This document shows positions 1,214 through 30,197 of a stretch of DNA of 32,000 bases, piece after piece. The position numbers and the translations under genes were made by a program. This DNA comes from Patescibacteria group bacterium (lineage in GTDB: Bacteria; Patescibacteriota; Patescibacteriia; 2-01-FULL-39-33). How positions within the stretch are numbered: the first letter of the stretch is position 1; each line of letters starts with the position of its first letter. Under the pieces are notes generated by a model. The model worked only from the letters and a program-made list of their open reading frames with translations. It made no database searches and had not been told where the DNA came from. The stretch spans positions 30,001 through 62,000 of the forward strand of contig JBAZMW010000005.1 in assembly GCA_041649575.1 (NCBI GenBank), given 5' to 3'.

Positions 1214-1250
1214 TAAAAAAAGAAAGTCCACGCGTGCTCATCGCGTGGAC
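1214..1250 (-). terminator. intrinsic terminator ending cassette 1
   Basis: Perfect 9-bp stem GTCCACGCG(1226-1234)/CGCGTGGAC(1242-1250) with a 7-nt loop. On the minus strand it is followed by TTTCTTTTTTTA and lies 23 nt past the stop at 1273. Confidence 0.7.
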
Positions 1251-1272
1251 CGGGTTGTTGTACATTCGGGGA

Positions 1273-1866
1273 TCAGGTCGGGATCTGAAAGCCTCCTCGC
1301 TGATTCCGTTTGATCCTTTTCGACCCAAGGAGCCTCTTTATGGCCGCCCTTATCTGCCGGTTGACCTTGACCGTCGACAGGCTTCTGTCGAACAGCCAAT
1401 GGGTGGTTCCCAGTTCGGCCAGATTGTCCAGCAGGTACTTGTCGTCGACAGGCAGATCAGTATCAACCGCCAAGGCCTCATTGATCGCCTCGATCACAGC
1501 CGCGTCGCAGTCCGCCTCGGTCTCAATGAATCGTCTCGATGGCGGTTTGGAGTCTGACGGCGGATTGGGCTCGGATTTCCTTGGTGGCTTGGACTTTCTC
1601 GGCGGCTTGGGATCTGACGGCGGATCGGGATCGGGCTCTGGCTCGGGATCGGGCTTGGCCCTTTTTCCTTTCTTGATCACGCCGTTTTCCAGATGCATCT
1701 CGCCGGCCGGCTCCATAAAACTGAAAAGAACCTGCCGTACTTGGTTTTCGACAATCGTCGATCCTATCGTGGACACGTCGTAGCCGTATGTTGCCGCGTT
1801 CTTGGATATTGCTTCAAGCAATTCCTCGAACGTCAGGTTCCAAACAAACTGCTCCTCGACAGCCAA
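1273..1866 (-). CDS. hypothetical protein with a central P/D/K/S-rich repetitive linker
   Basis: 197-aa ORF starting at TTG, preceded by GGAGAAGG 6 nt upstream. Two globular ends are joined by PDPEPEPDPDPPSDPKPPRKSKPPRKSEPNPPSDSKPP, encoded by imperfect 18-nt tandem repeats at about 1549-1660. No recognisable domain. Confidence 0.55.
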   Translation of the reverse strand: MAVEEQFVWNLTFEELLEAISKNAATYGYDVSTIGSTIVENQVRQVLFSFMEPAGEMHLENGVIKKGKRAKPDPEPEPDPDPPSDPKPPRKSKPPRKSEPNPPSDSKPPSRRFIETEADCDAAVIEAINEALAVDTDLPVDDKYLLDNLAELGTTHWLFDRSLSTVKVNRQIRAAIKRLLGSKRIKRNQRGGFQIPT

Positions 1867-1957
1867 GACCAGCCTTCTCCAGTCATCGGAGACTTTCCCT
1901 GGATCAGTGGAATTCCTCGGCGTTTTCAGCCGGATGCTCCTGTCTCTCTCGCCCTTT

Positions 1958-2491
1958 TTAGGGGCGGCTACGAAAGGGGCGAGCGATTCCTCCTTCGACC
2001 ATGATTTTCATGGTCTCGCTCTTCTTAAGAGCTGTCAGGGCCGCGTCGAGACGACTCATGCACTTCGAAAATACCGCATCGTCGTCGTTCATTGCTGCGT
2101 TCTTGTGCCACCACTTGGCCAGGGCCTGACGGGTGTTCGTCGTGTCGTTGCCGCCGCAGATATGCTCGTAGAGCAGCCTGGACTTCTTTCCGTATTCGCT
2201 CTTTCCGCCCCCGGCCGTTGCAGCCTTCACCGACTTGGCCGGCCGACCGCGCTCACGCGGCGCTTTGGCCGCGGCTGCCTTCTGCGCCGGCCGTCCGTTT
2301 CTGAGGCCATGCAAGGAGTCAAGCAACTCTTGCAGCCGCTGATCCAGAAAGTCAAGAAGCCTACTCTTCCAATCATCCACGAGTTTCGAAGCCTCTTCGT
2401 CGGAAAGCAGCCTCTCGAGCAGACGAGCAGATCCCTCTATGTCAGCATCAGGATCGCCTGCCAGAATCCCCAACAACAGATTTCGCGCCAT
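1958..2491 (-). CDS. hypothetical protein (A/K/R-rich middle region)
   Basis: The track starts at GTG 2500, but GAGGAGG abuts that GTG directly and lies about 9 nt before the ATG at 2491 (MARNLLL...). I therefore take ATG 2491 as the start. No recognisable domain. Confidence 0.55.
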   Translation of the reverse strand: MARNLLLGILAGDPDADIEGSARLLERLLSDEEASKLVDDWKSRLLDFLDQRLQELLDSLHGLRNGRPAQKAAAAKAPRERGRPAKSVKAATAGGGKSEYGKKSRLLYEHICGGNDTTNTRQALAKWWHKNAAMNDDDAVFSKCMSRLDAALTALKKSETMKIMVEGGIARPFRSRP

Positions 2492-2565
2492 GGTTTTCAC
2501 CCTCCTCGCTAAATGTTCCGATATTTGTCTGTCTCACAGGGTGGCCGCTTAGCCATCCATGCCTT

Positions 2566-2596
2566 ATTCTTACACCAGATCATACATTTTAGTCAA
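2566..2596 (-). promoter_or_regulatory. candidate promoter for the 1958-2491 / 1273-1866 unit
   Basis: Minus strand reads TTGACT (2591-2596), 18 nt, TAAGAA(T) (2566-2572). The -10 is weak. Confidence 0.3.
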
Positions 2597-2672
2597 CAAA
2601 CCAGTTTTTGGCGGTTTTTACAAAAGTAGCCGGTAATTGCGATAAAATAATATAAGCCGGCTAGCGGCGGCG

Positions 2673-2714
2673 AAAAAATAGAATAAAAACAGAGCACGTC
2701 TCGCGACATGCTCT
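2673..2714 (-). terminator. intrinsic terminator after the 357-aa gene
   Basis: Hairpin AGAGCAcGTC-TCGC-GACaTGCTCT (2691-2714). On the minus strand it is followed by a GTTTTTATTCTATTTTTT run and lies 38 nt past the stop at 2752. Confidence 0.6.
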
Positions 2715-2751
2715 ATAGAATACAGAACGCTGAATGTACGACCAGCCCTTC

Positions 2752-3825
2752 TCACTGGATTGGTTGCACTGGTGGTGTCGGTGTTGGCGTCTCCTTGGCC
2801 TCCTTTGTTTCCCTGGTTACCCTCGGAATGAACAGGGGCATCACCGCTTCCCCTGCCGTTGACGAGACTCTGTCCTCGGAGACTTCTGCGCCGTACTGGC
2901 CGACAGACCCGTACTTCAGGCACTTACTGCTGTAGAGCGGGTTCTCGCAACGATAGGCGCCGATTTCCATGGGAGAACCGCCAGTAGCCAGCCGCATACA
3001 CAGATCGATGAACATCAGTTCGGGGAGCGTGGCGAATCTCACCGTCAAGTCTCGATGCAAGCGTTGCAGGTGCAGGAGTTCGAGCTGCTGTTCCTGCCAG
3101 GTGAGGCCTTCCAGCCAAAGGCTCTTGCCCTCATGACAAGCAGCCCAGGTGGGTATGGGCGCGAAGGCGTAGAAGTCTTCCAGCGGCCACTTATTACATG
3201 CCTCGGCGAATAATGTCGGAATGTCGGGGTTCTGCGGGTCGAACTGACGTAGCGCTGGCTGGAAGCCGAAGAATTGCTGGTTCAGTTCACTCTTGGAGAA
3301 GTCCGCTCCCCGTAAGAAGGCCACGGGCACCAGACCAGGGTGGATCCCGAGATATCTGCCGTCCGCCCAGCTTCCCTCCAGTTTACCTAGGCGCTTCGCC
3401 CAATAAATGGCACAATTGGGAAGGTCGTGGTTGTGACGAATCTTGCGTCTCACTCTGACCATCAGGGCCAGGGCCCCCAGAACCACGTGTGACCGGCTGA
3501 ATGGTTCGGGCAGAAAGGTCGCCGCGGTCATTTGACTCCGATACATGTGCAGCATGTGCTGCAACATTCGGAAACTCAAGGCGTCGGTGGTGGTGAGCTC
3601 GATCATTTGGGCAAAGAGGCCGGTGATCCAGTTGAGGTGCTCGAGTTCTTTCTTGTCCGGTTCTGGGTGTTCCTCGGCAAACTTCCCTAGGCTCTTCAGG
3701 ACAGGAGCTACCATCCTGATTTGCCCGTCCGTAAGCGACAGAAAGTTCAGCAGCAATTGCGCTAGCTGTCCTTGATCGCGAACGGCAGTTAATGCCGTCT
3801 TTAGCTCGTTTCTGACTTCTGTCAT
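2752..3825 (-). CDS. hypothetical protein, 357 aa, no recognisable domain
   Basis: ATG at 3825 with GGAGGAG 7 nt upstream. AAG-preferring codon usage. C-terminal T/P/E/K-rich tail. Confidence 0.65.
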   Translation of the reverse strand: MTEVRNELKTALTAVRDQGQLAQLLLNFLSLTDGQIRMVAPVLKSLGKFAEEHPEPDKKELEHLNWITGLFAQMIELTTTDALSFRMLQHMLHMYRSQMTAATFLPEPFSRSHVVLGALALMVRVRRKIRHNHDLPNCAIYWAKRLGKLEGSWADGRYLGIHPGLVPVAFLRGADFSKSELNQQFFGFQPALRQFDPQNPDIPTLFAEACNKWPLEDFYAFAPIPTWAACHEGKSLWLEGLTWQEQQLELLHLQRLHRDLTVRFATLPELMFIDLCMRLATGGSPMEIGAYRCENPLYSSKCLKYGSVGQYGAEVSEDRVSSTAGEAVMPLFIPRVTRETKEAKETPTPTPPVQPIQ

Positions 3826-3872: not shown

Positions 3873-3902
3873 ATTTTTAGCACGTTATTATTTAAAGGTC
3901 AA
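3873..3902 (-). promoter_or_regulatory. candidate promoter of the 357-aa gene
   Basis: Minus strand reads TTGACC (3897-3902), 17 nt, TAAAAA (3874-3879), about 45 nt upstream of the ATG. Confidence 0.4.
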
Positions 3903-10709: not shown

Positions 10710-11741
10710 ATGAAAATTTTAGCCATTGAGACCTCATGCGATGAGACATCAGCCAGTGTTTTGTCTGGCCAGAAAAACAAGCTGGAAATTTTATCTAATG
10801 TCGTTTCCTCGCAAATTGATATTCACAAAAAATATGGCGGCGTGGTACCGGAGGTGGCCGCGCGCCATCATGTGCAAAATATTTTGCCGGTGGTGGACGA
10901 GAGTTTGGCGTTAGCCAAAGCGGGGCCAAAAGAGATTGATCTACTGGTGACGACGGCCGGGCCGGGGCTGGTCACTTCTCTGATCATCGGTGTGGAAGCG
11001 GCCAAGACACTAAGCTTCGCTTGGCAGAAGCCGCTACTGGCTATTAATCATATGTACGGCCACATCGCCGGCAATTTTTTGAACGACAAAATAACTTTTC
11101 CGGCTGTTTGTCTGGTGGTTTCTGGCGGCCACACGGAGATCGTTTATTTAAAAAATTATTGGCAATTCAAAAAAATTGGTCAGACAGTCGACGACGCGGC
11201 CGGCGAGGCCTTTGACAAAGTGGCCAAGCTTTTGGGCCTGGGTTATCCCGGGGGGCCGATTGTTTCATCCAAGGCCGAGGAATTTAAAAACATTAACTTG
11301 CAGAGCAAACTAAAACTGCCGCGGCCGATGCTTAAAAGCGCGGATTTTAATTTTTCCTTTTCCGGGCTCAAGACGGCGGTTTTGTATTTGGTTCAGAAGA
11401 TGTCTGAAGCTGAAAAAAGGGAAAGAATTCCCGAGATTTGTTTTGAGTTTCAGCAGGCGGTGATTGATGTTTTGGTGACTAAGACCGTCAGAGCCGCCAG
11501 GGAATATAGGGTAAAAACGGTGATGCTGGCCGGCGGCGTGGCGGCTAATAAAAAATTAAGAGAAAGTTTGCGGCTGGCAGCCGAAAGAGGTGGCTATAAG
11601 TTTCTGGTGCCGGAATTTAAGTTGTGCACCGATAACGCGGCGATGGTCGCTTTGGCTGGTTATTATCTGGCGCGAAAGAAAAAGATTAAGCTGGATAATT
11701 GGAAAAGAGTTAAAGTCGATCCGAATTGGGAGTTGAAGTGA
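10710..11741 (+). CDS. tsaD: tRNA N6-adenosine threonylcarbamoyltransferase TsaD
   Basis: MKILAIETSCDETS N-terminus, HH..H metal motif region (AARHHVQNI, INHMYGHI), GGPxxS and GGVAANKKLR. The TTG at 10701 in the track is replaced by the ATG at 10710, which gives the canonical N-terminus. Confidence 0.93.
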   Translation: MKILAIETSCDETSASVLSGQKNKLEILSNVVSSQIDIHKKYGGVVPEVAARHHVQNILPVVDESLALAKAGPKEIDLLVTTAGPGLVTSLIIGVEAAKTLSFAWQKPLLAINHMYGHIAGNFLNDKITFPAVCLVVSGGHTEIVYLKNYWQFKKIGQTVDDAAGEAFDKVAKLLGLGYPGGPIVSSKAEEFKNINLQSKLKLPRPMLKSADFNFSFSGLKTAVLYLVQKMSEAEKRERIPEICFEFQQAVIDVLVTKTVRAAREYRVKTVMLAGGVAANKKLRESLRLAAERGGYKFLVPEFKLCTDNAAMVALAGYYLARKKKIKLDNWKRVKVDPNWELK

Positions 11742-11748
11742 TTTGTCA

Positions 11749-11797
11749 CTTTTCTTTTTTTAGAAAAAAGAAAAGCTGACGCAAAAGAAAAAAGCGC
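11749..11797. repeat. leader repeat, copy A (polypyrimidine/polypurine hairpin plus A-rich tail)
   Basis: CTTTTCTTTTTT-TAG-AAAAAAGAAAAG perfect 12-bp hairpin followed by CTGACGCAAAAGAAAAAAGCGC. It is about 85 percent identical by eye to 23220-23266. Confidence 0.6.
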
Positions 11798-11930: not shown

Positions 11931-11958
11931 TCGCAGTGAAGAATCTTTAAAAAATGTT

Positions 11959-12438: not shown

Positions 12439-12457
12439 TTTAAAAATTTTTATATTT

Positions 12458-19346: not shown

Positions 19347-19382
19347 AGTCCCGACCAAGCGCGTTAACGCTCGGTCGGGACT
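19347..19382. terminator. strong GC hairpin between convergent genes (left edge of cassette 2)
   Basis: AGTCCCGACC(19347-19356)/GGTCGGGACT(19373-19382) perfect 10-bp stem plus an inner AGCG/CGCT. No clean U-run on either strand. Confidence 0.5.
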
Positions 19383-20353: not shown

Positions 20354-21685
20354 TCAGGCCATCAGGGATTTGGGCACATGATCTATCCTCTCGAACGCCC
20401 CCAGGCTTAGATGTGAAACCGTCACGACCATTAATTGCTCGACTACTTCTATTACCGCCAGCAGAACTCTCTCTGGCAGAAGCGTCGGATTGCTGGTCGG
20501 CCCGTCTCTAGCGCAGTGCACCAGCGTTTCAGTACTGGAGACGGAACAAACCATGGTCGGCTGTCGTTCTTCCAGCGCTTGCGCTCGGGCCAGGGCAGAA
20601 CAAATCAGCCCGAAGAGCATCAGCAGGCCCACCGTCGCCAACGCTTTGCGCCTGGCCAAGTCTTGCTCGGCTTGGATTAGCGCCAGGAGTTGGTGGAGCT
20701 GGAAGCGTGGCTGACTGGCCAATTCGGCGAGGTAGGCTTTCTCGGCCGCGGACAACTGATAGCCGCTCGGTTTGTCGCGCAGGTATTCCGCCTTGAGACG
20801 CAGGCGTCTCAGCTCGGTGGCCGCCGTGGTTTCGTGCGGGTAGAGCCAGACATACACCGGCCAACCAACCAGCATTTTGGCGAAACGTAACGGCGCCAAA
20901 CCTATTTCGCTACGCAACCCTAGGGTGTCGTCAGCCCAAAGGCGAACGAGGTAGAGGATAAAACAGACCACTATTCCCTTAAGGTAGGTAGTGAGAAGCC
21001 ACCGGGCGATGGCCAGCCAGTCGATCTTGGGGTCGGCAATTGCTGTCGCCCTCGAATACCAGTTGCTGTATTGCTCCTCTCTCTTCATCTGTGCCAGACT
21101 GTCGAAGTCCTCTTCATTCTTCTTGTCTCGCCAGCCGTTTTTCATGGCTAGCTGCTGGGCGTCGTCCATACCACTTCCCCAGGCATCAACGTCGAAAGAG
21201 TAGCGCAGGGGCATGAGGTTGGCCTTACAAAGATCCAGTTGCTTCTGGAGATCTGCAAAGTAGTCTTCGAGGAAGTACTGTTCTTCTTTGGCCAACCCTT
21301 GTTGCCAGAGGTTCTTGACTGTGGTCGAGTAGAACTTAGCCGTCTCTTCTGGAGACGGCCTGGTCGGCCTGATCTCCGGCAGGATGACACAGTTGTTCAT
21401 CCGACCGATGATTTGCCACTGTTTTTCGATTTCTTCGGCCGTCGGGTGATGCACGAAGCAGGCGCCCTTGAAGACAAAGAAGCGGTCTCCTTGCGGATTC
21501 CAGGGGATGACTATTCCCTGAATAGCCCAGACTACCCCGAGCAGACACAGGATGGCCGTGATTCGGTTCAGCCAGCTGGCTGGTCTCCAAGGCCACCTTG
21601 TTTCTGATGGTGGATGGTCGATGTTGCAGTCGTCGACCAACACTCGCACCGAACCAGCTGGTCCGTCGTGATATCGCCAAGCCAT
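20354..21685 (-). CDS. hypothetical membrane protein, 443 aa
   Basis: ATG at 21685 with GGAAGGAGGTG upstream. At least three hydrophobic helices and W/R-rich. No recognisable domain. Confidence 0.6.
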   Translation of the reverse strand: MAWRYHDGPAGSVRVLVDDCNIDHPPSETRWPWRPASWLNRITAILCLLGVVWAIQGIVIPWNPQGDRFFVFKGACFVHHPTAEEIEKQWQIIGRMNNCVILPEIRPTRPSPEETAKFYSTTVKNLWQQGLAKEEQYFLEDYFADLQKQLDLCKANLMPLRYSFDVDAWGSGMDDAQQLAMKNGWRDKKNEEDFDSLAQMKREEQYSNWYSRATAIADPKIDWLAIARWLLTTYLKGIVVCFILYLVRLWADDTLGLRSEIGLAPLRFAKMLVGWPVYVWLYPHETTAATELRRLRLKAEYLRDKPSGYQLSAAEKAYLAELASQPRFQLHQLLALIQAEQDLARRKALATVGLLMLFGLICSALARAQALEERQPTMVCSVSSTETLVHCARDGPTSNPTLLPERVLLAVIEVVEQLMVVTVSHLSLGAFERIDHVPKSLMA

Positions 21686-21751: not shown

Positions 21752-21780
21752 ATTTTATACTAATTTCTAGTTTTTGTCAA
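21752..21780 (-). promoter_or_regulatory. promoter of cassette 2
   Basis: Minus strand reads TTGACA (21775-21780), 17 nt, TAAAAT (21752-21757). Confidence 0.5.
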
Positions 21781-21790: not shown

Positions 21791-21824
21791 GAAAAAACAA
21801 AATCCCCGACTTTAGTCGGGGATT
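21791..21824 (-). terminator. intrinsic terminator after the S1 gene
   Basis: AATCCCCGAC-TTTA-GTCGGGGATT (21801-21824), followed on the minus strand by TTGTTTTTTC. It lies 14 nt past the stop at 21838. Confidence 0.7.
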
Positions 21825-21837: not shown

Positions 21838-23055
21838 TTATTCTTCTTCTTTTTCTTCTTCCGTCTTTGGTGCTGGCGCTGCTTTTGGCTCTTCGGTTTT
21901 TTCCGGTTCAATTTTTTCTTTGGGTTCCGCTGTTTTTTTGGCTTCTTCGGCCGGCTTTTCTTTTGGCTTGGTCAAACTAAGTCCCAGCCGATGATTTTTG
22001 GAATCCATGGAAACAATATAAAAATCCATTTGGTCGCCGGCCTTGGCGATTTCTTCGATATTATTTATCGGCTTGTCGCTTAATTGGGAAATATGGGCCA
22101 AGCCCTGGATGTCTTTGTCTATTTCCACAAACAAGCCAAAAGGGTTGGCTTTGATTACGGTGCCAGAGATTTTTTGGCCGATCTGAAAGCGATTTTCCAA
22201 GCCTTCCCAAGGATCTTTCTGCAGCTTTTTGGTTGATAAAAATATTTTGGAATTTTCAATGGAGATAATTTCCGCTTTGATTCGCTGGCCCACTTTGACA
22301 AAATCATTGGGATCGTCGATTCTTTGCCAGGCGATTTCCGAAATGTGAATCAGCCCTTCCAGCTTGTCGAATTCCACAAAAATGCCGAAGTCGGTGACGG
22401 CGGTGACCAAGCCATCAACCACCTCGCCCACTTTATATTTATTGATAATGTCTTGCTGGGTTTCTTCCCAAGCGGCTTTTTCGGAAACTATTAATTTGTC
22501 TTCGCCCTCATTGGCGTCAATCACTTTGACTTCGAATTTTTTGCCGATATAGGATTTGAGAATTTCCAGAATTCGATTTTTGTCGCCGCCAGGCACGCGC
22601 GGGTAATGCTCGGGAGACAACTGGGAAACCGGCAGAAAGCCCACCGTGCTTTCCAGCTTGACCATTAGGCCGCCTTTGTTGGCGTCGGTGACCGTCACCT
22701 CGATAATGGAGGCCCCTTTCTCGTATTGTTTGATGCTTTGCCAGGCCCTTTGGCGGCCGGCATAGCGGAAAGACAATTCTACTTCGCCGTTTTCGTTTTC
22801 CAATTCCAAAACAGTGGCTTCGACTTCGTCGCCAGGTTTGAGGTTGCGGTATTCATCGGCTTCGCTGTAGCGTTCTTTGCCGCGCACCAAACCGGTGGCG
22901 ATGCCGTTTAAATCCAGATGCGCTTCGTTTTTGTTGGCGCTAATAACCGTGCCTCTGACCAAATCGCCGATTTTTGGCAAATTAAAATACTGCTTATCTT
23001 CAAGCAGTTTGGCCATAGGTGAATCTTTCTTTTCTTTCTTTTCCTTAGTTTTCAT
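21838..23055 (-). CDS. rpsA: 30S ribosomal protein S1-like, four S1 domains with a K/E/P-rich tail
   Basis: Four repeats of the S1 OB-fold pattern (GDLVRGTVI.., GASIIEVTVTD.., GEVVDGLVTAVTDFGIFVEF, GQKISGTVIKANPFGLFVEI). 405 aa. Confidence 0.85.
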   Translation of the reverse strand: MKTKEKKEKKDSPMAKLLEDKQYFNLPKIGDLVRGTVISANKNEAHLDLNGIATGLVRGKERYSEADEYRNLKPGDEVEATVLELENENGEVELSFRYAGRQRAWQSIKQYEKGASIIEVTVTDANKGGLMVKLESTVGFLPVSQLSPEHYPRVPGGDKNRILEILKSYIGKKFEVKVIDANEGEDKLIVSEKAAWEETQQDIINKYKVGEVVDGLVTAVTDFGIFVEFDKLEGLIHISEIAWQRIDDPNDFVKVGQRIKAEIISIENSKIFLSTKKLQKDPWEGLENRFQIGQKISGTVIKANPFGLFVEIDKDIQGLAHISQLSDKPINNIEEIAKAGDQMDFYIVSMDSKNHRLGLSLTKPKEKPAEEAKKTAEPKEKIEPEKTEEPKAAPAPKTEEEKEEE

Positions 23056-23158
23056 AAAAATTTATTTAGCCCTCGTCTTGAATAGCGACAGAGCCCCGCT
23101 TTTTAATAATTAAATTAGTGGTTGCGGGTATTAATTAGCTAAGCATTAGCATAGCAGA

Positions 23159-23187
23159 TTGACGAGAGAATGTCAATGGAGTATATT
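23159..23187 (+). promoter_or_regulatory. candidate promoter of the RNHCP-domain gene
   Basis: TTGACG (23159-23164), 17 nt, TATATT (23182-23187). The leader repeat copy B lies in the predicted 5'-UTR. Confidence 0.4.
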
Positions 23188-23219
23188 TAGAATAATTTAT
23201 TTTATGTAAATATGTTTTA

Positions 23220-23272
23220 CTTTTTCTTTTCTAGAAAAGAAAAAGCTAACAAAAAGAAAAAAGCGCTCGCAG
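23220..23272. repeat. leader repeat, copy B (empty site relative to the 11798-11930 insertion)
   Basis: CTTTTTCTTTTC-TA-GAAAAGAAAAAG perfect 12-bp hairpin followed by CTAACAAAAAGAAAAAAGCGCTCGCAG, collinear with 11749-11797 plus 11931-11936. Confidence 0.6.
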
Positions 23273-23289
23273 AATAATGTTTATAAATC

Positions 23290-23604
23290 ATGTCATTTAC
23301 TAGAAAAAAAGAGGATTTTGTCTGCGGTAACTGCGGACACGAAGTTGAGGGCGACGGTTATACCAATCACTGTCCGAAGTGTTTATGGTCTAAGCATGTG
23401 GACAAGAATCCCGGCGATCGGCAAGAGGAATGCGGCGGGCTGATGAAGCCAGTTGATATATATCTGGAGCATCAAAATTGGATTATTGTGCATCAGTGTC
23501 AGACTTGCAGCGCCCAGAAGCGCAATCGAGTGAATGACGGCGATGATTTTGAAGAGGTGATCAGATTGGAAAAAGAAATAAATGACAAAAAAATAAAGGG
23601 CTAA
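23290..23604 (+). CDS. RNHCP domain-containing zinc-ribbon protein
   Basis: CGNCGHEV...GYTNHCPKCLWSKHVD...ECGGLM...HQCQTCS, which matches the RNHCP-domain pattern. Confidence 0.7.
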   Translation: MSFTRKKEDFVCGNCGHEVEGDGYTNHCPKCLWSKHVDKNPGDRQEECGGLMKPVDIYLEHQNWIIVHQCQTCSAQKRNRVNDGDDFEEVIRLEKEINDKKIKG

Positions 23605-23972: not shown

Positions 23973-24056
23973 ATGAAAAATTTTTGATTTTAATTTTTTA
24001 AAGGTAGTAAGGGATTATATTAGAGACATGAATTTATTAAGTCATTTTTTAGATAC

Positions 24057-24102
24057 AAAAAAAGACGGGCATGGAGAGTGAGATTCAACTCTCCGCCCGT
24101 CT
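24057..24102 (-). terminator. intrinsic terminator ending the cassette 3 operon
   Basis: Long hairpin AGACGGGCaTGGAGAGT / ACTCTCC-GCCCGTCT (24063-24102), followed on the minus strand by a TTTTTTT run. It lies 26 nt past the stop at 24128. Confidence 0.7.
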
Positions 24103-24127: not shown

Positions 24128-25336
24128 TCAGAATTTCCACGCCGTTTCGGCGAAACAGCGTGGATTTTCTCGATATTGACCCATGAAGGTGTCCTTTTCT
24201 CCCAAAGGCACACCCAGGCCAGCCTTAACCTCGAAGTCGTCCTTCCTCCAAGTCAGGGACGGTTCAAAGTAGGCGTCGCCGTGTTCAAGGTTCAGAGAGC
24301 CGCTGAGCTCCACCGACCAACGACCCGTGTCATTGGGAGTATACTTTATCCGGTAGAGCAGGGCTCCGTCGAGGCCTCGACGAAAGTCTTTCGCCCGGAA
24401 CAAATCCGGGGTTTCTTTCCGAGTCTCGACTTCGAAAGCGTACTGCAGCAGGACAGACAAGCTGTCTGTTTTCCTGAATGGCTTGTTCCATTCGTGATCC
24501 ACTCCCACGACACACTGGAGGAAATCGTCGGCGTTCTTCTGTCTGAAGTAGCCGGCTTCGGCGCGCAGGTTGTAGCCGCTAGAGATTTCCGTCGCCAGGG
24601 AGATGGCGATGACTTGTTCTTCGCGGTAGGTGGGAATAATCTGTTTCGGTAGCTTCAGCTCAAACGACGGAGTGTAGCTCAAGCCGTCGTAGAAGCTTGC
24701 GCCCAGGTCCCAGCCCTTTATTGTACAACCAGCACGAAGCGCGAGTTGGCCGTGGCCGTTTTCTGGTTCGCCTAGCTCCAGATTGTTTGGGAGCGCTTGT
24801 CCCCAACGTTCACTGGCAGGGAGTCTTGACGGGGTGAACCACGGAACGTAGACCAGTTCCAGGTACTTGTCATAGCCTAGGCGGATATCAACGGCTGGCA
24901 CTCCCATTCTCTCCCAGTCAATAACATCTGTCAGGTCGCGGGGACAGATATTGTCGTTTGGCGAGACGGTGTCGGTCACCGACCAGTCGAATACCTGTTT
25001 GCCAAGACGTAGCCGAAGCCACTTCCAAGAGGTTTCTGCGTACAGTTCCCTCGCGCCGACTATCGGTCGGTGTCCAGTCGAGTCGTCGAACACGCCTTGG
25101 GCAAATCCGGCGCTGTCCAAGCGAAGGTCGCCTTCGGCATGAATTAGGAAATGCTTTGAGAATACGGCCGTCACCTTTGGCTTAAGCCGCATTTCTGCAA
25201 AAGCATCTTCCGCTTCACTGGACTTGTGGCTGAAATAGCCATCTCCCCGCAACTCGAGCTGCCCGCCGGTTTTCCATTCCAACCCTTGGGCGACTAGCGA
25301 CAGGGAGATCAGGAGCAGGATAGTAGTACCTTTCAT
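24128..25336 (-). CDS. beta-barrel outer-membrane-type protein (porin-like), third gene of the exporter operon
   Basis: Signal peptide MKGTTILLLISLSLVAQG, amphipathic strand pattern rich in Y/W/F/G, and a C-terminal ETAWKF ending in Phe. AAGGAG lies 7 nt upstream, and the start is 4 nt from the upstream stop. Confidence 0.65.
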   Translation of the reverse strand: MKGTTILLLISLSLVAQGLEWKTGGQLELRGDGYFSHKSSEAEDAFAEMRLKPKVTAVFSKHFLIHAEGDLRLDSAGFAQGVFDDSTGHRPIVGARELYAETSWKWLRLRLGKQVFDWSVTDTVSPNDNICPRDLTDVIDWERMGVPAVDIRLGYDKYLELVYVPWFTPSRLPASERWGQALPNNLELGEPENGHGQLALRAGCTIKGWDLGASFYDGLSYTPSFELKLPKQIIPTYREEQVIAISLATEISSGYNLRAEAGYFRQKNADDFLQCVVGVDHEWNKPFRKTDSLSVLLQYAFEVETRKETPDLFRAKDFRRGLDGALLYRIKYTPNDTGRWSVELSGSLNLEHGDAYFEPSLTWRKDDFEVKAGLGVPLGEKDTFMGQYRENPRCFAETAWKF

Positions 25337-25340
25337 CGCG

Positions 25341-26117
25341 TTACTCCTTTGTCAGGTGAGCGGTTGTGAAGATGGAAGGCTCAATAGAGTCAGGAAACTC
25401 TCTCTTCACGACTCGCAACACAGTCGTCCTTCCTAGCGCGACATTCTCAATCGCGGTAGCGCCAGCTCGCCATAGCCCGCCTTCTTTTGCTTCGACGTCT
25501 TTGTTGACAAGCGTTTTGACTAGCCTGTCGGCTTGGTCGTAGAAGCGAATCTCCCTGGTGATGAAGCTTCTATCTATCAGAAAGACCCTCTTTCCGTAGC
25601 CGGATTTGATTCCAGGCTTGGATCGCGCTTCAACCGCCCAGACGCCCTCCTTGCACTCCAGTGTCTGGTAATCGAAGTCATCGAGGCGTTCGCCGGTGAG
25701 TTGCCTGGCGTCCTCGTAGCTGAAATCAGTCCCGGCGAAATACTTACTCTCGTCACCGACAGAGATTCGTCGAACCTTGTCGAACGATGGCAGCTTGAGC
25801 CATAGGTCGTCAGCATTTCCCGGATGACGGTTGACCAGCAGGCCTAACCCGCGATCCATGGCTGGTTCGCCAAAGATCATGCACGTCTTGTCCTCGCCAT
25901 TTGGCTCGAACAAGATCCAGCGAGTATAGGCCTTTTCCGTCTTCCGGCCGCTGTATCCCGTCACGACGACTTGCACGTTCTCGATTTCGTAGACTGACTG
26001 GCGATACAGCTGCCAGCTTTTGCCTACGATTTCTCGGCCGTTGTCGGTGGTGGTTTGCGCCGAAGCGACAACTGTCGACAACATGGCCGCTATTACTATT
26101 AGCATGGTTTTCTTCAT
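25341..26117 (-). CDS. LolA-like outer membrane lipoprotein-sorting protein family
   Basis: The true start is the ATG at 26117 (GGGAGA 6 nt upstream), giving signal peptide MKKTMLIVIAAMLSTVVASAQ. The block LWLKLPSFDKVRRISVGDESKYFAGTDFSYEDA matches the LolA_like family signature (LPxxxxVRRISxxxxxxxFxGSDFxYED). The 71-codon N-terminal extension in the track overlaps the MMPL gene and is rejected. Confidence 0.8.
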   Translation of the reverse strand: MKKTMLIVIAAMLSTVVASAQTTTDNGREIVGKSWQLYRQSVYEIENVQVVVTGYSGRKTEKAYTRWILFEPNGEDKTCMIFGEPAMDRGLGLLVNRHPGNADDLWLKLPSFDKVRRISVGDESKYFAGTDFSYEDARQLTGERLDDFDYQTLECKEGVWAVEARSKPGIKSGYGKRVFLIDRSFITREIRFYDQADRLVKTLVNKDVEAKEGGLWRAGATAIENVALGRTTVLRVVKREFPDSIEPSIFTTAHLTKE

Positions 26118-26179: not shown

Positions 26180-28627
26180 TCATTTCTTTTCTCGCCCTAC
26201 CACGCAGAGTGGCAGAGCGGCCAGCATGGCCACCATGGCGCCGAAGCCGCAAGCGATTAGCATGGCAATCATCACCCATCCCAGCCGTGCGACCGGAATG
26301 AAATTTGATGCCGTAAGAGGCAAGAAACAAAAGCAGTTCAGCGTAATGTCAACCAAAACCGCTCGTCCCTTGTCTCTCATACTGCCTCGCAGCGCTTCAA
26401 GTCGGCCTGTGGTCTGGATGATCGGTTGATACGCAGCTACCAAGTACAAGCCGAAGTCCATGGCCGCGTTTATCGCCATGGCGGTAACGCAGGCAGTGGC
26501 TTGGTCTAGCGGTATTCTTAGTACCATCATTAATACAGCGATGACCGCAGTAGCGAAGATAAACGGCACGTTCATGACCAGTCCGGTGCGCCAGCTGCTA
26601 AGGCACGTCGTACCTCCTCTTATTCCGCGGTTGCGCCAGAAGATCCAGAGCCCGCAGATAATAGCGACAATCCATTGCGAAGTCAGCAGGTTTAGCGGCT
26701 TGCCTTCACGGATGTATTTGTCGTTACGAGGATAGATCGGTACTTTGCCAAACGGCAAGATTTGCAGTCCGGGAAATTGCTCTCCCAGTTCTCTTATCTC
26801 GTCGCAGAGCTGGCCCAGGACATTGGAGTCTTCCATGGCTGTAGAGGCAAAGATCACGACCCCTTGGTCGAACCACAGTTGTTGCTGCACTGGTGGTCCT
26901 ACGTCCCAGGAGATGATCTCCCAGATGTCGTGAGCTTGCTGAGTGGTTGTTGGCCACTTTACGCCATATGACTCTCGCGATACCACGCCGACCGTGTCTA
27001 GAGCGGATTTGACTTCTCGGACATTGGCCAGCCTGGCGATCGCGTTTTGGAACTCGACCGCTTTTTGGATGAAGGCGGGGTCGTCCACCGTTGTCGCTCT
27101 TGAGGGCATAACCAGGACTGACACGCGGTCGAAACCGTACCTGTCGTTCTCGTTGAGGAATTTGCTGGCGCGATATACTATCGTGCCAGGGATATATTCC
27201 AAGGGTCTGGTCCGGACTTCTATGAAGTCAAAGTCCTTGCTAACCCCAGGGATATAATCCAAACTGATCATGCCGATCGTGGCAACAACCAGCGCCCCAA
27301 CCAGAGACAGTGACAGCCAGCCAATCTTTCGGTAGGCAAAGCGCCCTTTCTTGTTTCGGCCGATGACAGCGGTGATCAGACGGACGATGCCACAGAGGAA
27401 TCTGTCCCAGATCGCCGCCGCCCAGGCTATACGACTCAGACTGTTTTTCACAGATACCGCTTCGCCACCCACCAACGAGTGGAGGGCTGGCAAAAACAGT
27501 AGTGATAACAGGATGAGATACGCGATGCCGAGACTGGCGAAAATCCCTACCTCCATAATTCCTCTGACGCCGATCTGGTAGAGGGTCAGGAAGTTGAGGA
27601 TGGCAATCAGCGCTGTCACGCCTATCACGCCATTGATGGATCGGGATCGGCGCCAGACAGCAGCCATCGTGGCCTGGTTGTCGGCTAGTCGGTTTTCGTT
27701 GTAGGCACAGAACTTGTGCACTGCGAACGAAATGCCGGCTACGATGATGGCGGTGTCAACCAGCAGGAAATACACCCGTTCGTAAACAGGCAGTCCTGCT
27801 ATTTGTGCCAGCCCGATTGATCCCCGCGCCCAGATAAAGCAGATCAAAACCACGAGAGTGGCAATCACTGCCTGTCTTAGCGATCTTAGAGACACCCAGG
27901 CGATGAGGCAGACAAGACCCAGTCCGATCGTAGACAGCCTCATGACGTCGGCTGTAAGCGAAGAGAAGATCAGGCCTCGGCCAATCACCCAGCCAGCCGG
28001 CATGACTCTTTCGAATCTGCCTGTCGGCTTAATGTCTGACTTGAAAAACCACTCCCATTCGGGGATCTCCCTCTGCTCCAGCATATTCGCCACGTTTCGA
28101 AACGTCTTCATCTCCTCGTAGCCGACCGGTAGCAGCAGGATTATTTGGGAGTAATCAAATTCTTTCCCAATCAGCAGGCCGTATACCCCGGAATCCCGGC
28201 GAACATCAGCTTTCCATCTTTCGATGTCAAACCGAGGATCGTCCAGGAGTTTCTGGGATATGTAGGGGTCACTGGAGAGAGCGTCACCAGTGTCTTGGTA
28301 GTGGGCCGCTTTGGACAAACTCAGAATTCCAAAACCCGGAAAGCTTTTTTCCAGCGTTTCCGTGAACCAAGAGACGTACTCCATGTCTTCTTTGGTGATG
28401 GCTTTTGGAAACTGAACTACGAAAGAAATGGCATCTCCGGTTTTCAGGCCTTGAGAAGCCAGTCCTTTCACTCGTTCATCTAGGAGGCGGTAGGGGTCTT
28501 GCTTGTTAAGCAGGGCGTCGTCGAGATCTCCCGCTTTTTTGACGTAGAGATTGCCATACAACATCGGTACGGTCAATACCAATACGGCGATCACTACAAC
28601 CAGAGCAAAACGCTTGTCGTGCTTCAT
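26180..28627 (-). CDS. RND-superfamily exporter, MMPL/HAE3-like
   Basis: 815 aa with the two-fold architecture TM1, large extracytoplasmic loop, TM2-6, repeated once. The hydrophobic bundles are typical of MMPL-type transporters. GGGAGGA lies 7 nt upstream of the ATG. Confidence 0.8.
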   Translation of the reverse strand: MKHDKRFALVVVIAVLVLTVPMLYGNLYVKKAGDLDDALLNKQDPYRLLDERVKGLASQGLKTGDAISFVVQFPKAITKEDMEYVSWFTETLEKSFPGFGILSLSKAAHYQDTGDALSSDPYISQKLLDDPRFDIERWKADVRRDSGVYGLLIGKEFDYSQIILLLPVGYEEMKTFRNVANMLEQREIPEWEWFFKSDIKPTGRFERVMPAGWVIGRGLIFSSLTADVMRLSTIGLGLVCLIAWVSLRSLRQAVIATLVVLICFIWARGSIGLAQIAGLPVYERVYFLLVDTAIIVAGISFAVHKFCAYNENRLADNQATMAAVWRRSRSINGVIGVTALIAILNFLTLYQIGVRGIMEVGIFASLGIAYLILLSLLFLPALHSLVGGEAVSVKNSLSRIAWAAAIWDRFLCGIVRLITAVIGRNKKGRFAYRKIGWLSLSLVGALVVATIGMISLDYIPGVSKDFDFIEVRTRPLEYIPGTIVYRASKFLNENDRYGFDRVSVLVMPSRATTVDDPAFIQKAVEFQNAIARLANVREVKSALDTVGVVSRESYGVKWPTTTQQAHDIWEIISWDVGPPVQQQLWFDQGVVIFASTAMEDSNVLGQLCDEIRELGEQFPGLQILPFGKVPIYPRNDKYIREGKPLNLLTSQWIVAIICGLWIFWRNRGIRGGTTCLSSWRTGLVMNVPFIFATAVIAVLMMVLRIPLDQATACVTAMAINAAMDFGLYLVAAYQPIIQTTGRLEALRGSMRDKGRAVLVDITLNCFCFLPLTASNFIPVARLGWVMIAMLIACGFGAMVAMLAALPLCVVGREKK

Positions 28628-28720: not shown

Positions 28721-28749
28721 ATATTAACATATTTATTTTTTTATGTCAA
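28721..28749 (-). promoter_or_regulatory. promoter of the cassette 3 exporter operon
   Basis: Minus strand reads TTGACA (28744-28749), 17 nt, TAATAT (28721-28726). The predicted 5'-UTR of about 85 nt starts in the AGTTGCTTTTTAAGCAACT hairpin. Confidence 0.55.
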
Positions 28750-28819
28750 GTATTATTAAAGTAATATTATCTTTAAAATGCTGTTATAAATATTTTATTT
28801 TGTTAATATTTTATTTTTG

Positions 28820-28881
28820 AGTTATCCACAGCTATTGATTTTATTGCTATTGACAAACTTATATTTTTTTGCTAGTATAAT
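28820..28881 (+). promoter_or_regulatory. promoter module P2 (DnaA-box 9-mer plus TTGACA-17-TAGTATAAT)
   Basis: AGTTATCCACAG (28820-28831), a duplicated CTATTGA, -35 TTGACA (28850-28855), a 17-nt spacer, then TAGTATAAT (28873-28881). It is divergent from the exporter promoter. Confidence 0.6.
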
Positions 28882-28884
28882 CAT

Positions 28885-29066
28885 ACTAAGTAGTGTACCT
28901 TGGCTTCATCTTTGGGCAGCTCTCTATAGTAGGGGTAGAGGGCAAGTAGTTGTGAGGCCGATTGCTGCGGCGATCGCGACCAAAATCGACAGGGCGGACC
29001 TAGTTCGCCCATCCCCTCATTCTGAAGTGGCTGGCACAGGTATGTGTTCAGCCCCTTTTTTGTTTA
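28885..29066 (+). ncRNA. candidate structured RNA 2 (unclassified, about 180 nt)
   Basis: It lies between promoter P2 and a terminator. Local hairpins are GCTCTCTA/TAGAGGGC, GCCG/CGGC and GGGCG/CGCCC. Only an implausible ORF (28817-29101) overlaps it. Ends are approximate. Confidence 0.45.
29029..29066 (+). terminator. intrinsic terminator of candidate RNA 2
   Basis: GGCTGgCACA / TGTGttCAGCC hairpin (29029-29053) followed by CCTTTTTTGTTT. Confidence 0.55.
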
Positions 29067-29078
29067 AGTGGTTAGATG

Positions 29079-29107
29079 TTGACAAAATTTTATACTTGTG
29101 ATACAAT
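29079..29107 (+). promoter_or_regulatory. promoter of the methyltransferase cassette
   Basis: TTGACA (29079-29084), 17 nt, TACAAT (29102-29107). Confidence 0.55.
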
Positions 29108-29176
29108 AATATGAAACCCTCTTGGTTTCGTTTGGCACATTGAAAGCCGAATTATTCGGCAACAAGGAGACGGGAC

Positions 29177-30145
29177 ATGTCGCACAGAGGAAGTCTAGGA
29201 AGACTTTTGCGACGCCATCCCGCGTCGCCAAAAGTAGCAGCCGAGATGATTCGTCGTCGCACCAGGATTCACTTCGCGCAAGTCACTGACGATTTGATTC
29301 CGGATGCCTTCGAGATATACGAAGGGGATTGTTTCAAGACCGCGATCAAGAAGCATCCCAGGGTGAAAGGGTTCATAAAGGATTTCTGGCGGTGGAATGA
29401 ATACGCCTTGTCGCTTATGAACCAGAACTCATTCCCCTACATCAGCATGCAGCAGCTTCTGGCCAAGATGATCGCTCCCTTTACCGGGGAAGTTCTGGCC
29501 GACATCGGCTGTGGCGCTGGTGATTTCTGTGCTCGTTTGCTTCAGCAAGACGGACACTGGATCCGGAAGATCTTCGCTGTCGATATTGATGCTTGGGGCT
29601 CACTCGCCAGGGTGCCGCAGACTCTCAAGGATGCTGGGTACAGGGGGAAAGTGGCCTTGGCTCAAGACTCGACGATGTCCAGACTGCCAATCTGGGACGA
29701 AACCGTGGACTGTGTTGTTTCCAGTCTGGGCGGTGTCACCTATGCGGGTTGGTGGTTCGAAGACGGCGAGCTGGTTTGTGAAGGAAGGGAGGCACTGCGG
29801 AGAAGCCTGAAAGACATCCGTCGCATTCTGAAGCCGGGTGGGTATCTAGGATTTTCAGGTTTGATGCCGAATCCCGACTTCATGATGATCTTCAAGTATT
29901 CGCTGTGGGAGCCGCTACGTCACTGTCGCCTCAAGCCGTTGTGGATGACTCTTAAGCACGGCTTGCGGATCAAGAAGATCTCCGCTTTCATGCACGAGTG
30001 TGAGTGCAAGCAGACCGCGCACTACCTCACCCTGGAGGAGTGGGCTGCTTATCTAAAGGAAGCGGGATTCGAAGTTGTCGACGCTAGCGTCGGCGAGTCG
30101 TACGCTAAGCAGGGCATCGTAGTAGTCGCACGTAAGGTCAGTTGA
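29177..30145 (+). CDS. class I SAM-dependent methyltransferase
   Basis: Motif I LADIGCGAGDF, acidic residue after beta-2 (FAVDID) and post-II/III LKPGGYLGFSG. AAGGAGA lies 7 nt upstream. AAG/TTC/ATC codon preference. The roughly 110-aa N-terminal extension is of unknown function. Confidence 0.8.
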   Translation: MSHRGSLGRLLRRHPASPKVAAEMIRRRTRIHFAQVTDDLIPDAFEIYEGDCFKTAIKKHPRVKGFIKDFWRWNEYALSLMNQNSFPYISMQQLLAKMIAPFTGEVLADIGCGAGDFCARLLQQDGHWIRKIFAVDIDAWGSLARVPQTLKDAGYRGKVALAQDSTMSRLPIWDETVDCVVSSLGGVTYAGWWFEDGELVCEGREALRRSLKDIRRILKPGGYLGFSGLMPNPDFMMIFKYSLWEPLRHCRLKPLWMTLKHGLRIKKISAFMHECECKQTAHYLTLEEWAAYLKEAGFEVVDASVGESYAKQGIVVVARKVS

Positions 30146-30152
30146 CTTCGAT

Positions 30153-30197
30153 CCTCTCAAGATCGCGAGATTGAGAGGGGGTCGGAGTTTTATTTTT
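30153..30197 (+). terminator. terminator-like hairpin ending cassette 4
   Basis: CCTCTCAA(30153-30160)/TTGAGAGG(30171-30178) followed, after 9 nt, by TTTTATTTTT. Confidence 0.4.

Follow-up and report, generated by a model that had tools for sequence, protein, structure and literature searches.

We examined a stretch of 32,000 nucleotides (the window, meaning the whole of contig JBAZMW010000005.1 of assembly GCA_041649575.1 between positions 30,001 and 62,000), which is a piece of the chromosome of Candidatus Buchananbacteria, a groundwater bacterium of the Patescibacteria, or candidate phyla radiation (CPR). GC along the window ranges from 0.29 to 0.60, and nine GC-rich coding sequences (CDSs), grouped into four cassettes, interrupt a backbone whose Pfam content is CPR-like: TsaD, TsaE, a tandem-fused T2SSE ATPase, FtsH, a CDP-alcohol phosphatidyltransferase, a four-domain S1, RNHCP and a seven-transmembrane (7TM) histidine kinase (HK). 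Scanning GTDB species genomes with S1 led to Candidatus Buchananbacteria metagenome-assembled genomes (MAGs) at 74-81% identity, and these share with the window the gene order RNHCP-S1-pgsA-ftsH-341aa-T2SSE-tsaE-tsaD. The cassette genes have strong Shine-Dalgarno (SD) sites, and the backbone genes do not. The features on which the argument turns are listed here with their SD duplex energies (dG, in kcal/mol).

99..1044, plus strand: end of an AT-rich defence or mobile island, comprising the C-terminal part of a PDDEXK/RNaseH nuclease and a 95-aa gene; GC 0.30-0.35, four-fold GC 0.31
1225..1251, minus strand: intrinsic terminator closing cassette 1; 10-bp stem with 7 GC pairs, then TTCTTTTTTT
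1273..1866, minus strand: c1_197 (cassette 1), TTG start, Pro/Asp/Ser-rich repeat linker; GC 0.56, GC at third codon positions (GC3) 0.68; SD GGAGAAGG, dG -6.9
1958..2491, minus strand: c1_177 (cassette 1); GC 0.58; SD GAGGAGG, dG -12.3
2689-2716, minus strand: second cassette 1 terminator, 3' of c1_357
2752..3825, minus strand: c1_357 (cassette 1); SD GGAGGAG, dG -9.4
3873..3902, minus strand: promoter-like site for c1_357, TTGACC-18-AAAAAT, 9/12 matches; weaker than the promoters of the other cassettes
10710..19331, no strand assigned: SD-less syntenic core block of tsaD, tsaE, the tandem-fused T2SSE ATPase, the 341-aa membrane protein, ftsH and pgsA (Pfam)
19350..19379, no strand assigned: left-junction hairpin of cassette 2, lying between the c2_293 and pgsA ends, CCCGACCAAGCG/CGCTCGGTCGGG; no T-run on either strand
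19403..20284, minus strand: c2_293 (cassette 2), secreted porin-like candidate with a signal peptide and C-terminal ...RFEF; SD AAGGAG, dG -8.3
20354..21685, minus strand: c2_443 (cassette 2), all-alpha membrane protein (by its model) of a rare family; SD GGAAGGAGGTG, dG -16.0
21752..21780, minus strand: cassette 2 promoter, TTGACA-17-TAAAAT, 11/12, just downstream of the S1 terminator; leader ~60 nt
21801..21824, minus strand: S1 terminator hairpin at the right junction of cassette 2; the bidirectional terminator ancestral in the S1|pgsA spacer
21838..23604, both strands: SD-less core pair S1 (minus) and RNHCP (plus), with divergent TTGACA-type promoters
24054..24101, minus strand: cassette 3 terminator, GACGGGC...GCCCGTC then a T-run; read by eye, missed by a simple scan
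24128..25336, minus strand: c3_402, third gene of the cassette 3 triad, with a signal peptide and C-terminal ...AWKF
25341..26117, minus strand: LolA-like / TP_0789-like carrier protein (cassette 3), PF17131 E=5.6e-37; SD GGGAGA, dG -7.4
26180..28627, minus strand: MMPL/RND (HAE3/HpnN-like) transporter (cassette 3), PF03176 E=6.7e-6, sub-threshold TIGR00921 E=1.9e-15; SD GGGAGGA, dG -10.3
28721..28749, minus strand: cassette 3 promoter, TTGACA-17-TAATAT with a TG extension
29079..29107, plus strand: cassette 4 promoter, TTGACA-17-TACAAT with a TG extension, 11/12
29177..30145, plus strand: class I S-adenosylmethionine (SAM) methyltransferase (cassette 4), PF08241 and PF13649; SD AAGGAGA, dG -8.5
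30153..30197, plus strand: cassette 4 terminator-like hairpin, CCTCTCA...TTGAGAGG, then TTTTATTTTT; read by eye

SD strength was taken as the duplex energy of the 20 nt upstream of each start against the anti-SD CACCUCCUUA, and the 9 cassette CDSs were compared with 14 backbone CDSs. An earlier note, made from the sequence alone, had proposed these nine CDSs, each with a strong SD, and a backbone lacking such sites. All nine open reading frames (ORFs) are present at the coordinates it gave, and in each of them (9/9) the SD string sits 5-10 nt upstream of the start. Duplex energies run from -6.9 to -16.0 kcal/mol in the cassettes and from +1.7 to -6.4 in the backbone, where 9 of the 14 lie above -2, so that a cut-off of -6.9 kcal/mol finds an SD in 9/9 cassette and 0/14 backbone CDSs (Fisher p=1.2e-6). 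Two starts are ambiguous: c1_177 has an alternative GTG at 2500, and the LolA-like gene may begin at 26117 or 26183.

The same note took each cassette to be a complete expression unit, which holds in large part. Near-consensus TTGACA-17-TAnAAT promoters (10-11 of 12 matches) precede cassettes 2, 3 and 4, and hairpin terminators follow cassettes 1, 3 and 4. The match ahead of cassette 1 is weaker, and the cassette 2 hairpin lacks a T-run. Upstream of c1_357 there is also a TTGAAT-16-TATAAT site (3994-4021), followed by a hairpin at ~3947-3985. The TTGACA-17 promoter type is common to cassette and core genes. As the note had also stated, nothing typical of mobile element edges was found inside the window: the cassette borders have no tRNA, no Rfam match (gathering or E<=1) and no meaningful flanking repeat, and Pfam scans of the window proteins found no integrase. 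The only recombinase nearby, a large serine recombinase ~8.9 kb upstream of the window, is attached to the AT-rich defence island, not to the GC-rich cassettes.

Contiguity, composition and insertion sites

The contig is contiguous across the cassettes. Logan contigs of run SRR8542065, which were separately assembled and were reached by exact-protein look-ups, are 100% identical to the window over 1-4704 (L141; L numbers are our handles for retrieved contigs and loci), over 17828-22996 (L001) and, in the 25.8-kb contig behind L002 and L003, from ~23231 to past the window end. Jointly they cover all eight cassette junctions, and their own breaks fall within backbone genes. An ENA MEGAHIT k141 contig of 114,430 bp is likewise identical to the window, and the same mosaic of core and cassettes recurs in other samples.

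In overall composition the cassettes stand apart, as the earlier note had said of their GC and of AAG, TTC and ATC. Their GC is 0.53-0.58 (backbone 0.29-0.50) and their GC3 0.63-0.72 (backbone 0.25-0.61). Compared with the conserved core genes, to which the backbone codon fractions refer, the AAG share of Lys codons is 0.66 versus 0.23, the TTC share of Phe codons 0.70 versus 0.27, the ATC share of Ile codons 0.60 versus 0.44 and the GAC share of Asp codons 0.74 versus 0.51. More generally, the C fraction of pyrimidine-ending (Y-ending) codons is 0.68 versus 0.46 and the G fraction of purine-ending (R-ending) codons 0.56 versus 0.39. GC at first and second codon positions (GC1 and GC2) is raised too, reflecting a different amino-acid composition. 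The GC steps are sharp at CDS ends, and the cassette promoter regions are host-like in AT content (only 16% GC at 28715-28884).

The claim of two gene populations, which stands for SD sites, does not carry over to composition. There are three tiers, the third being AT-rich and made up of the RNaseH gene, the 95-aa gene and the C1/GNAT gene (6397-7935). The first axis of relative synonymous codon usage is a continuum in which T2SSE falls inside the cassette range, so that a single discrete codon-usage cluster for the cassettes was rejected. The C fraction of two-fold Y codons is 0.31-0.36 in tsaD, tsaE and pgsA, 0.47-0.55 in S1, ftsH and T2SSE, and 0.58-0.77 in the cassettes. At four-fold sites GC is 0.67 in the cassettes, 0.73 in the core, 0.65 in the 760-aa, 729-aa and HK genes and 0.31 in the AT-rich trio. 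There, the cassettes are no GC-richer than the backbone, and the sole real outlier is the AT-rich trio (that is, the island genes together with the C1/GNAT gene). The differences between cassettes and backbone are thus located in two-fold codons, in amino-acid usage and in the C/G balance at four-fold sites, which is near equal in the cassettes (0.35/0.32) and C-dominated in the core (0.48/0.25). Four-fold bias is accordingly weaker in the cassettes (GGC 0.45 vs. 0.75; GCC 0.42 vs. 0.61). The core genes themselves combine a strong four-fold preference for C (GGC 0.75, GCC 0.61, ACC 0.57; A-ending 0.08) with A/T-ending two-fold codons (AAA 0.77, TTT 0.73). Tetranucleotide z-scores correlate at 0.65 between cassettes and backbone, at 0.37 between two halves of the cassettes and at 0.57 between two halves of the backbone, and no common donor signature is visible among the cassettes. 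Judged as genomic islands are usually judged, the cassettes differ strongly in overall GC, two-fold codons and amino-acid usage; four-fold GC and tetranucleotides do not differ.

SD use was surveyed in 62 Patescibacteria loci around S1 (826 ORFs; loci rather than whole genomes). The sites of cassettes 2, 3 and 4 could be compared with the corresponding sites in relatives; no relative locus reaches the cassette 1 site. The S1|pgsA spacer, where cassette 2 lies, has convergent neighbours, ~250-320 nt and one bidirectional terminator in seven loci (L004, L010, L011, L012, L078, L110, L121), and 0.5-5 kb of different cargo in seven others. Four such inserts (L080, L084, L085 and L132) contain 9 called ORFs, of which 6 have an SD with dG <= -7 and one more reaches only -6.7. 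This spacer is a hot spot for insertions, and most of the cargo found in it is SD-led, for example:

L080: 221-aa gene, dG -8.7
L084: 225-aa gene, dG -8.5
L085: histidyl-tRNA synthetase (HisRS), dG -10.3; 288-aa gene, -8.7; 336-aa gene, -8.2

A hairpin homologous to the S1 terminator is the sole spacer feature in L004, L011, L012 and L053 (L080 has CCCCGACTAAAATCGGGG), and the outer stem of the hairpin at 19350..19379 resembles the S1 terminator stem.

The S1/RNHCP pair has cassette 2 on one side and a variable island on the other. Cassettes 3 and 4 occupy this island, between RNHCP and HK, an interval that varies among relatives and that in L005, L012 and L053 holds a FadL-family gene, a 3-hydroxyacyl-CoA dehydrogenase (3HCDH) and a methyltransferase. 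The FadL assignment is firm (L011:8106-9287, PF03349 E=6e-42, 144 bits vs. a cut-off of 29.7), and six orthologues adjoin RNHCP in relatives. FadL and 3HCDH are absent from the window, where the MMPL/LolA-like/402-aa triad takes their place. Cassettes 2 and 3 are therefore absent from the syntenic site in relatives; this is not so for cassette 4, the methyltransferase of which is syntenic. Cassette 1 abuts the AT-rich island (GC 0.27-0.34), which extends upstream of the window. There (L140, 375-10288) the island carries the large serine recombinase, a fused N6_Mtase/Methylase_S gene, DUF4268 and the PDDEXK/RNaseH nuclease, and it is probably an integrated defence element.

SD state in relatives, and the genes of the cassettes

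Across the related loci SD state follows gene family. SDs were found in 25/30 members of accessory families and 1/52 members of core families, and with the window excluded the counts are 17/22 and 1/44 (p=1.7e-10). The comparison shows that whether initiation is predicted to be SD-led or SD-less is conserved within gene families and separates flexible from core genes. Overall, 13% of the 826 ORFs bear an SD, against a background of 4.5%; the further gene GC lies above the median of its locus, the higher the frequency, from 4-10% up to 25-41%. The core block has dG of +1.7 to -0.6 in the window, and it keeps its order and is SD-less in each of L004, L005, L006, L011, L012 and L053. Both classes can be seen side by side at loci that carry cassette homologues:

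L067: SD-less TyrRS and ArgRS (GC 0.37-0.41); SD-led MMPL triad (0.48-0.51)
L070: SD-less PolA (GC 0.40); eight SD-led genes (0.51-0.60)
L073: SD-less SMC (GC 0.40); SD-led flanking genes
L074 and L076: SD-less neighbouring genes; SD-led c1_357 homologue, with no GC offset

The SD of c1_357 is thus kept in L074 and L076 where the GC offset is not, and the SD plus spacer of c2_443 (GGAAAGGAGGTGAAAAAACC-ATG) is almost invariant in L070 and L073 at 46-53% protein identity. Because SDs are conserved across ~50% protein divergence, we infer that the host ribosome reads them. The suggestion in the earlier note that the genome may not use SD sites therefore fits the SD-less core and the low overall share (13% of the ORFs in related loci), but not the cassette families, in which SDs are conserved. 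HisRS, just beyond the window, has cassette-class composition (GC 0.58, GC3 0.73) and a weak SD-like site (dG -6.5), and elsewhere its SD is clear in L085 and L006 and weak in L012; therefore, the SD-led class includes at least one housekeeping gene.

The two classes also differ in their start regions. SD-less genes have an upstream GC of 24% and a start region (-30..+30) that folds at -5.0 kcal/mol, whereas for SD-led genes the upstream GC is 41% and the fold more stable, at -7.9 kcal/mol. Low SD use combined with A/U-rich, weakly structured starts, as expected of an SD-poor regime, is what the S1-centred loci display. In the 62 loci, 66% of SD-less starts have T at -1 and ~57% have A at -5/-6, which is not the case for SD-led genes. 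Such a context is unlike the A(-3) rule of Bacteroidia and could partly reflect the start-codon rule used. General leaderless initiation was rejected for the SD-less genes, upstream of which there is no -10 signal at a fixed distance, although a few of them may be nearly leaderless. No 16S rRNA was present in the 1.8 Mb of related loci scanned.

Homologues of the cassette proteins were sought among 5.8 billion proteins, including assemblies of the same sample. The best non-self homologues are 46-55% identical and none exceeds 55%; judged by these sequences, nothing resembles a recent donor, and no donor lineage emerged. For c1_357 there were four matches, all from Patescibacteria where named, among them P0053 (Patescibacteria, 52%), P0054 (42%) and P0055 (Portnoybacteria, 39%). 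Neither c1_357 nor the c2_443 family has relatives in 2.9 million viral contigs, and a prophage or viral origin was rejected. No Pfam, NCBIfam or PADLOC family was found for c1_177. In the case of c1_197, its codon-position GC (0.57/0.42/0.68) and SD favour the minus strand over a plus-strand ORF at 1234-1557. Automated callers (ENA, Logan contigs) chose that 107-aa ORF over the 197-aa c1_197, apparently on the wrong strand, and in a Logan contig c1_357 went uncalled and a 157-aa ORF in another frame was taken.

In cassette 2, c2_293 has a weak match to the TorF-family porin model TIGR02001 (E=2.9e-5, below cut-off) and no PDB profile-search match. It is 55% identical to a partner gene in L070, where it travels with c2_443. 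The family of c2_443 is rare: a word-indexed search found two relatives, and a complete HMMER scan of 1.84 billion representative proteins found 67. Its AlphaFold2 (AF2) model is all-alpha (pLDDT 77.7), and there was no PDB fold match for c2_443 and no Pfam family in 32 members.

The MMPL/LolA-like/third-gene order of cassette 3 is kept in L064, L067 and, outside Patescibacteria, in Nitrospirae L068. The best non-self matches of the MMPL protein, at 46-52%, are from Patescibacteria, Falkowbacteria, Nitrospirae and Desulfuromonadales, and a rough neighbour-joining tree separates the named Patescibacteria sequences, which cluster together, from the two diderm ones (Nitrospirae and Desulfuromonadales). 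The third gene, c3_402, is 46-50% identical to its counterparts in L064, L067 and L068. It has no Pfam match and no PDB profile match, and a single-sequence AF2 model was unusable (pLDDT 31); its signal peptide and C terminus make it a putative outer-membrane-type beta-barrel. A FadL remnant, or distant FadL homology of c3_402 or c2_293, was also considered and rejected: tblastn gave nothing convincing, and hhalign gave probabilities of 1.5-2.3% (1.5% for c3_402 vs. FadL). The methyltransferase of cassette 4 has syntenic orthologues beside the HK gene in L012 (55%), L005 (51%) and L053 (43%), all SD-bearing. PADLOC matches it to mad2 of the methylation-associated defence system (E=2.9e-12), which is probably generic SAM-methyltransferase similarity, and a defence system was rejected, as PADLOC gave nothing beyond this match.

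Several further elements of the window deserve mention. The 1010-aa ATPase (12458-15490, minus strand) is a tandem fusion of two T2SSE units, with internal repeats 1329 nt apart at 72-80% identity; in close relatives one 566-aa gene stands instead, and only L041 matches the double form over its full length. A GC-rich transcript candidate of ~250 nt (23716-23975, plus strand) lies between RNHCP and cassette 3, with a promoter at 23681-23709 (TTGACC-17-TAGTAT), an intrinsic terminator at ~23941-23975 and a fold z of -3.0 (0/200 shuffles as stable); Rfam gave no match for it, and related loci do not conserve it. Between the promoters of the MMPL and methyltransferase genes there is another GC-rich non-coding candidate (28885-29065, plus strand; promoter 28850-28878; fold z -1.6). 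The 12-mer AGTTATCCACAG precedes each of the two candidates, and its copies hold the only two perfect DnaA-box 9-mers of the window (TTATCCACA, at 23663 and 28822).

Two palindromes stand in backbone spacers. The tsaD-tsaE spacer (11742-11958) contains a long imperfect palindrome predicted to form a ~150-nt hairpin (fold z -8.1). A copy 77% identical to it lies in the S1|pgsA hot spot of L080, a Buchananbacteria contig (11372-11528), which suggests a mobile element resembling a miniature inverted-repeat transposable element (MITE). A related 46-nt stretch occurs at 23221-23266. A palindromic element GTCATTGCGAG...CTCGCAATGAC at 8117-8222, in the spacer before the 729-aa gene, is also listed for L054 and has a similar element in the S1|pgsA spacer of L006 (~11375-11508). 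A spurious 81-aa ORF (7998-8243) reads through it.

A proposed old flexible gene pool and its alternatives

Our preferred reading, to which we give a probability of roughly 55%, is that the cassettes are self-contained, laterally mobile accessory units of an old flexible pool, SD-led in an SD-poor genome, and not a fresh import from one GC-rich donor. It builds on the contiguity of the contig, the insertion sites, the conservation of SD state by family and the backbone-like composition at neutral sites. Under this reading, the conserved syntenic core would start translation without SD, from very A/U-rich and weakly structured leaders, and accessory units would have entered it at hot spots between genes, namely the S1|pgsA terminator spacer, the interval from RNHCP to HK and the border of the defence island. 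Each unit would bring an AT-rich sigma-70 promoter of host type, a GC-richer leader of 50-90 nt, SDs 5-10 nt before the starts and a 3' hairpin. The cargo would come from the Patescibacteria flexible gene pool, part of it common to diderm phyla, and the SD, the G/C-ending two-fold codons (AAG, TTC, GAC, TAC) and proteins richer in R, A, P and W would travel with the families from host to host. The outcome would be two lasting classes of initiation: a core that does not depend on SD, and an accessory pool that is SD-led and portable ("plug-and-play"). The SD may help GC-richer, more structured 5' ends to initiate, and portability itself may select for it, as units that move between sites and hosts would gain from a portable initiation signal. 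Much of the cargo may serve envelope or lipid handling (MMPL, LolA-like, barrel-like and porin-like proteins with a membrane partner; FadL and 3HCDH in relatives), which we offer as a hypothesis.

A number of points weigh against this reading. No relative closer than ~81% S1 identity was found among GTDB genomes and JGI metagenomes, so the insertions cannot be dated. Gene calls in the related loci are crude (longest ORF and first-ATG rule). Module GC3 exceeds that of the host core in 10/12 hosts (Wilcoxon p=0.0017) and follows it by Pearson correlation (r=0.66), but by Spearman the association is weak (0.39, not significant). The AAG/TTC contrast in the window (AAG 0.66 vs. 0.24) far exceeds that in relatives; in a paired comparison over 33 loci, AAG differs by a mean of just +0.06 and TTC does not differ significantly. 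The suggested envelope or lipid role draws on Pfam matches for a few genes only. The anti-SD motif CCTCCT is reported to be present in 48% of Parcubacteria 16S sequences, about half being without it (PMC9297842). Finally, the non-coding spacers within cassettes are GC-rich (0.44-0.60) and cassette GC3 has not decayed relative to GC1 and GC2, both as in unameliorated import.

These last two features belong to the alternative that the cassettes were captured recently and repeatedly from SD-using donors of ~55-60% GC, with SD, codon dialect and GC as unameliorated donor traits. The codon-position GC would fit a genome of ~56-58% GC, and the near-equal four-fold C and G, the AAG/TTC usage far from that of the backbone, the absence of cassette 2 from its site in seven relatives and the presence of the triad in Nitrospirae and Desulfuromonadales point the same way. 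We nevertheless regard this alternative as unlikely. No match exceeds 55% among 5.8 billion proteins, c1_357 was found in Patescibacteria only, the methyltransferase is syntenic in relatives, and the Patescibacteria MMPL sequences cluster together. Moreover, orthologous modules keep their SD outside the window (17/22) and have GC3 above the host core in 10/12 hosts, total four-fold GC is no higher than in the backbone, and the cassettes have no common tetranucleotide signature. Of the repeated foreign-gene capture proposed in the earlier note, the repeated insertion of self-contained units survives (cassette 2 in a spacer that is empty in seven relatives, cassettes 3 and 4 in a variable island); recent import from a distant SD-using donor does not, for the reasons just given.

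Could the cassettes instead be native and very highly expressed, with SD and C-ending two-fold codons as products of translational selection? Highly expressed bacterial genes usually favour TTC, TAC, AAC, GAC and ATC. The two-fold C fraction does rise from tsaD/tsaE/pgsA through S1/ftsH/T2SSE to the cassettes, and the cassette promoters are near consensus. This would not account for a four-fold bias that is weaker in the cassettes than in the core, nor for the difference in amino-acid composition (GC1 and GC2 raised). S1 and ftsH, expected to be abundant, are SD-less in every host, and a methyltransferase and proteins with no assigned function are unlikely to be top-expressed. We consider this explanation quite improbable.

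An elevation of GC by recombination, through GC-biased gene conversion in often-exchanged flexible genes, with SD kept for unrelated reasons, seems to us very improbable. It would suit the fact that whole transcribed units are GC-raised, non-coding spacers included and promoters not, as well as the recurrence of the GC offset in 10/12 hosts and the different hot-spot cargo of different genomes. However, four-fold GC is not above that of the core, c1_357 has no offset in L074 and L076, there is no direct evidence of recombination tracts, and the link to SD is left unexplained. Last, an assembly or binning chimera, in which pieces of a GC-richer organism would alternate with a CPR genome, as the earlier note had allowed, would agree with the sharp GC steps and with outer-membrane-type proteins in a lineage thought monoderm, but it is hardly credible given eight junctions inside 32 kb, all reproduced at 100% in Logan contigs that break inside backbone genes, cassette promoters of core type in host-like AT-rich regions, a methyltransferase syntenic in relatives and the same mosaic in other samples.

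Returning to the preferred reading of an old, SD-led flexible pool, a bolder extension may be stated, although we think it doubtful as a whole: that ABY1-type Patescibacteria run an SD-independent core channel and an SD-dependent flexible regulon that includes outer-membrane-type parts. In a group held to be monoderm, these parts may comprise FadL, TorF-like and LolA-like proteins and the Phe-ending barrel candidates. The SD channel could be conditionally switched, by analogy with Bacteroidia ribosomes lacking bS21, which gain SD reading, and the modules of barrel and lipid carrier could serve lipid scavenging from a diderm host.

Gene finders, detectors of horizontal gene transfer and binning tools treat SD, GC and codon usage genome-wide, and here these properties are split by gene class, with a core/accessory split that is conserved across hosts within the CPR. 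If the SD-led class is real, it would provide a simple sequence marker for the Patescibacteria flexible gene pool, a testable link to reports of Parcubacteria lacking the anti-SD, and envelope or lipid candidates (FadL, MMPL/LolA-like triads, porin-like proteins) by which lipid-auxotrophic episymbionts might handle host membranes. A striking compositional mosaic on a metagenomic contig need be neither a chimera nor a recent transfer.

Comparison with known systems

Like integron cassettes, the units are compact, mobile and placed at a recurrent site. Integron cassettes are promoterless and depend on attC and IntI; the units described here have their own promoters, no attC-like repeats at their ends and no integrase in the window, and this identity was therefore rejected. 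The closest parallels in content are the MMPL/LolA-like triads of diderms, given that the same three-gene order occurs in Nitrospirae L068 and that FadL, of the FadL/TodX outer-membrane channels, stands at the equivalent position in relatives. Unlike those systems, the host here is a Patescibacterium, a group described as monoderm (PMC8871954), and the third gene has no recognised family and is unrelated to FadL by profile comparison.

As for initiation, the only related statement that we found in the CPR literature is that about half of the 16S sequences of Parcubacteria lack the anti-SD (Tsurumaki et al. 2022; PMC9297842). That study, which considered 16S rRNA only and does not name Buchananbacteria in its main text, points like ours to reduced SD use in this part of the CPR; it describes no conserved class of SD-led genes and no link to accessory genes. 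The nearest parallel with experimental backing is Bacteroidia (e.g., F. johnsoniae), in which most genes are SD-less with A-rich, unstructured starts, the anti-SD is sequestered, and very few genes bear an SD (rpsU and the prfB frameshift site) (PMC6847099, PMC7797042, PMC9976891, PMC13000453). The resemblance is that most genes lack an SD and have weakly structured starts, while a minority keeps a strong one. In contrast to Bacteroidia, ~10-15% of ORFs are SD-led here, chiefly flexible accessory genes, and SD-less starts have T at -1 and A at -5/-6 rather than A at -3.

Lateral transfer shapes CPR gene content, and the cassettes are like CPR genomic islands in their atypical composition, in sites that are empty in relatives, in their patchy distribution and in cargo common to other phyla. 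They are unlike them in that integrase, tRNA and direct repeats are missing from their borders, the families of the cargo are long-standing members of the Patescibacteria pool, GC at neutral sites and tetranucleotides are host-like, and the cleanest marker is SD-led initiation rather than GC. Genomic islands and SD-poor lineages were already known; the most useful result is the SD split at the level of gene families.

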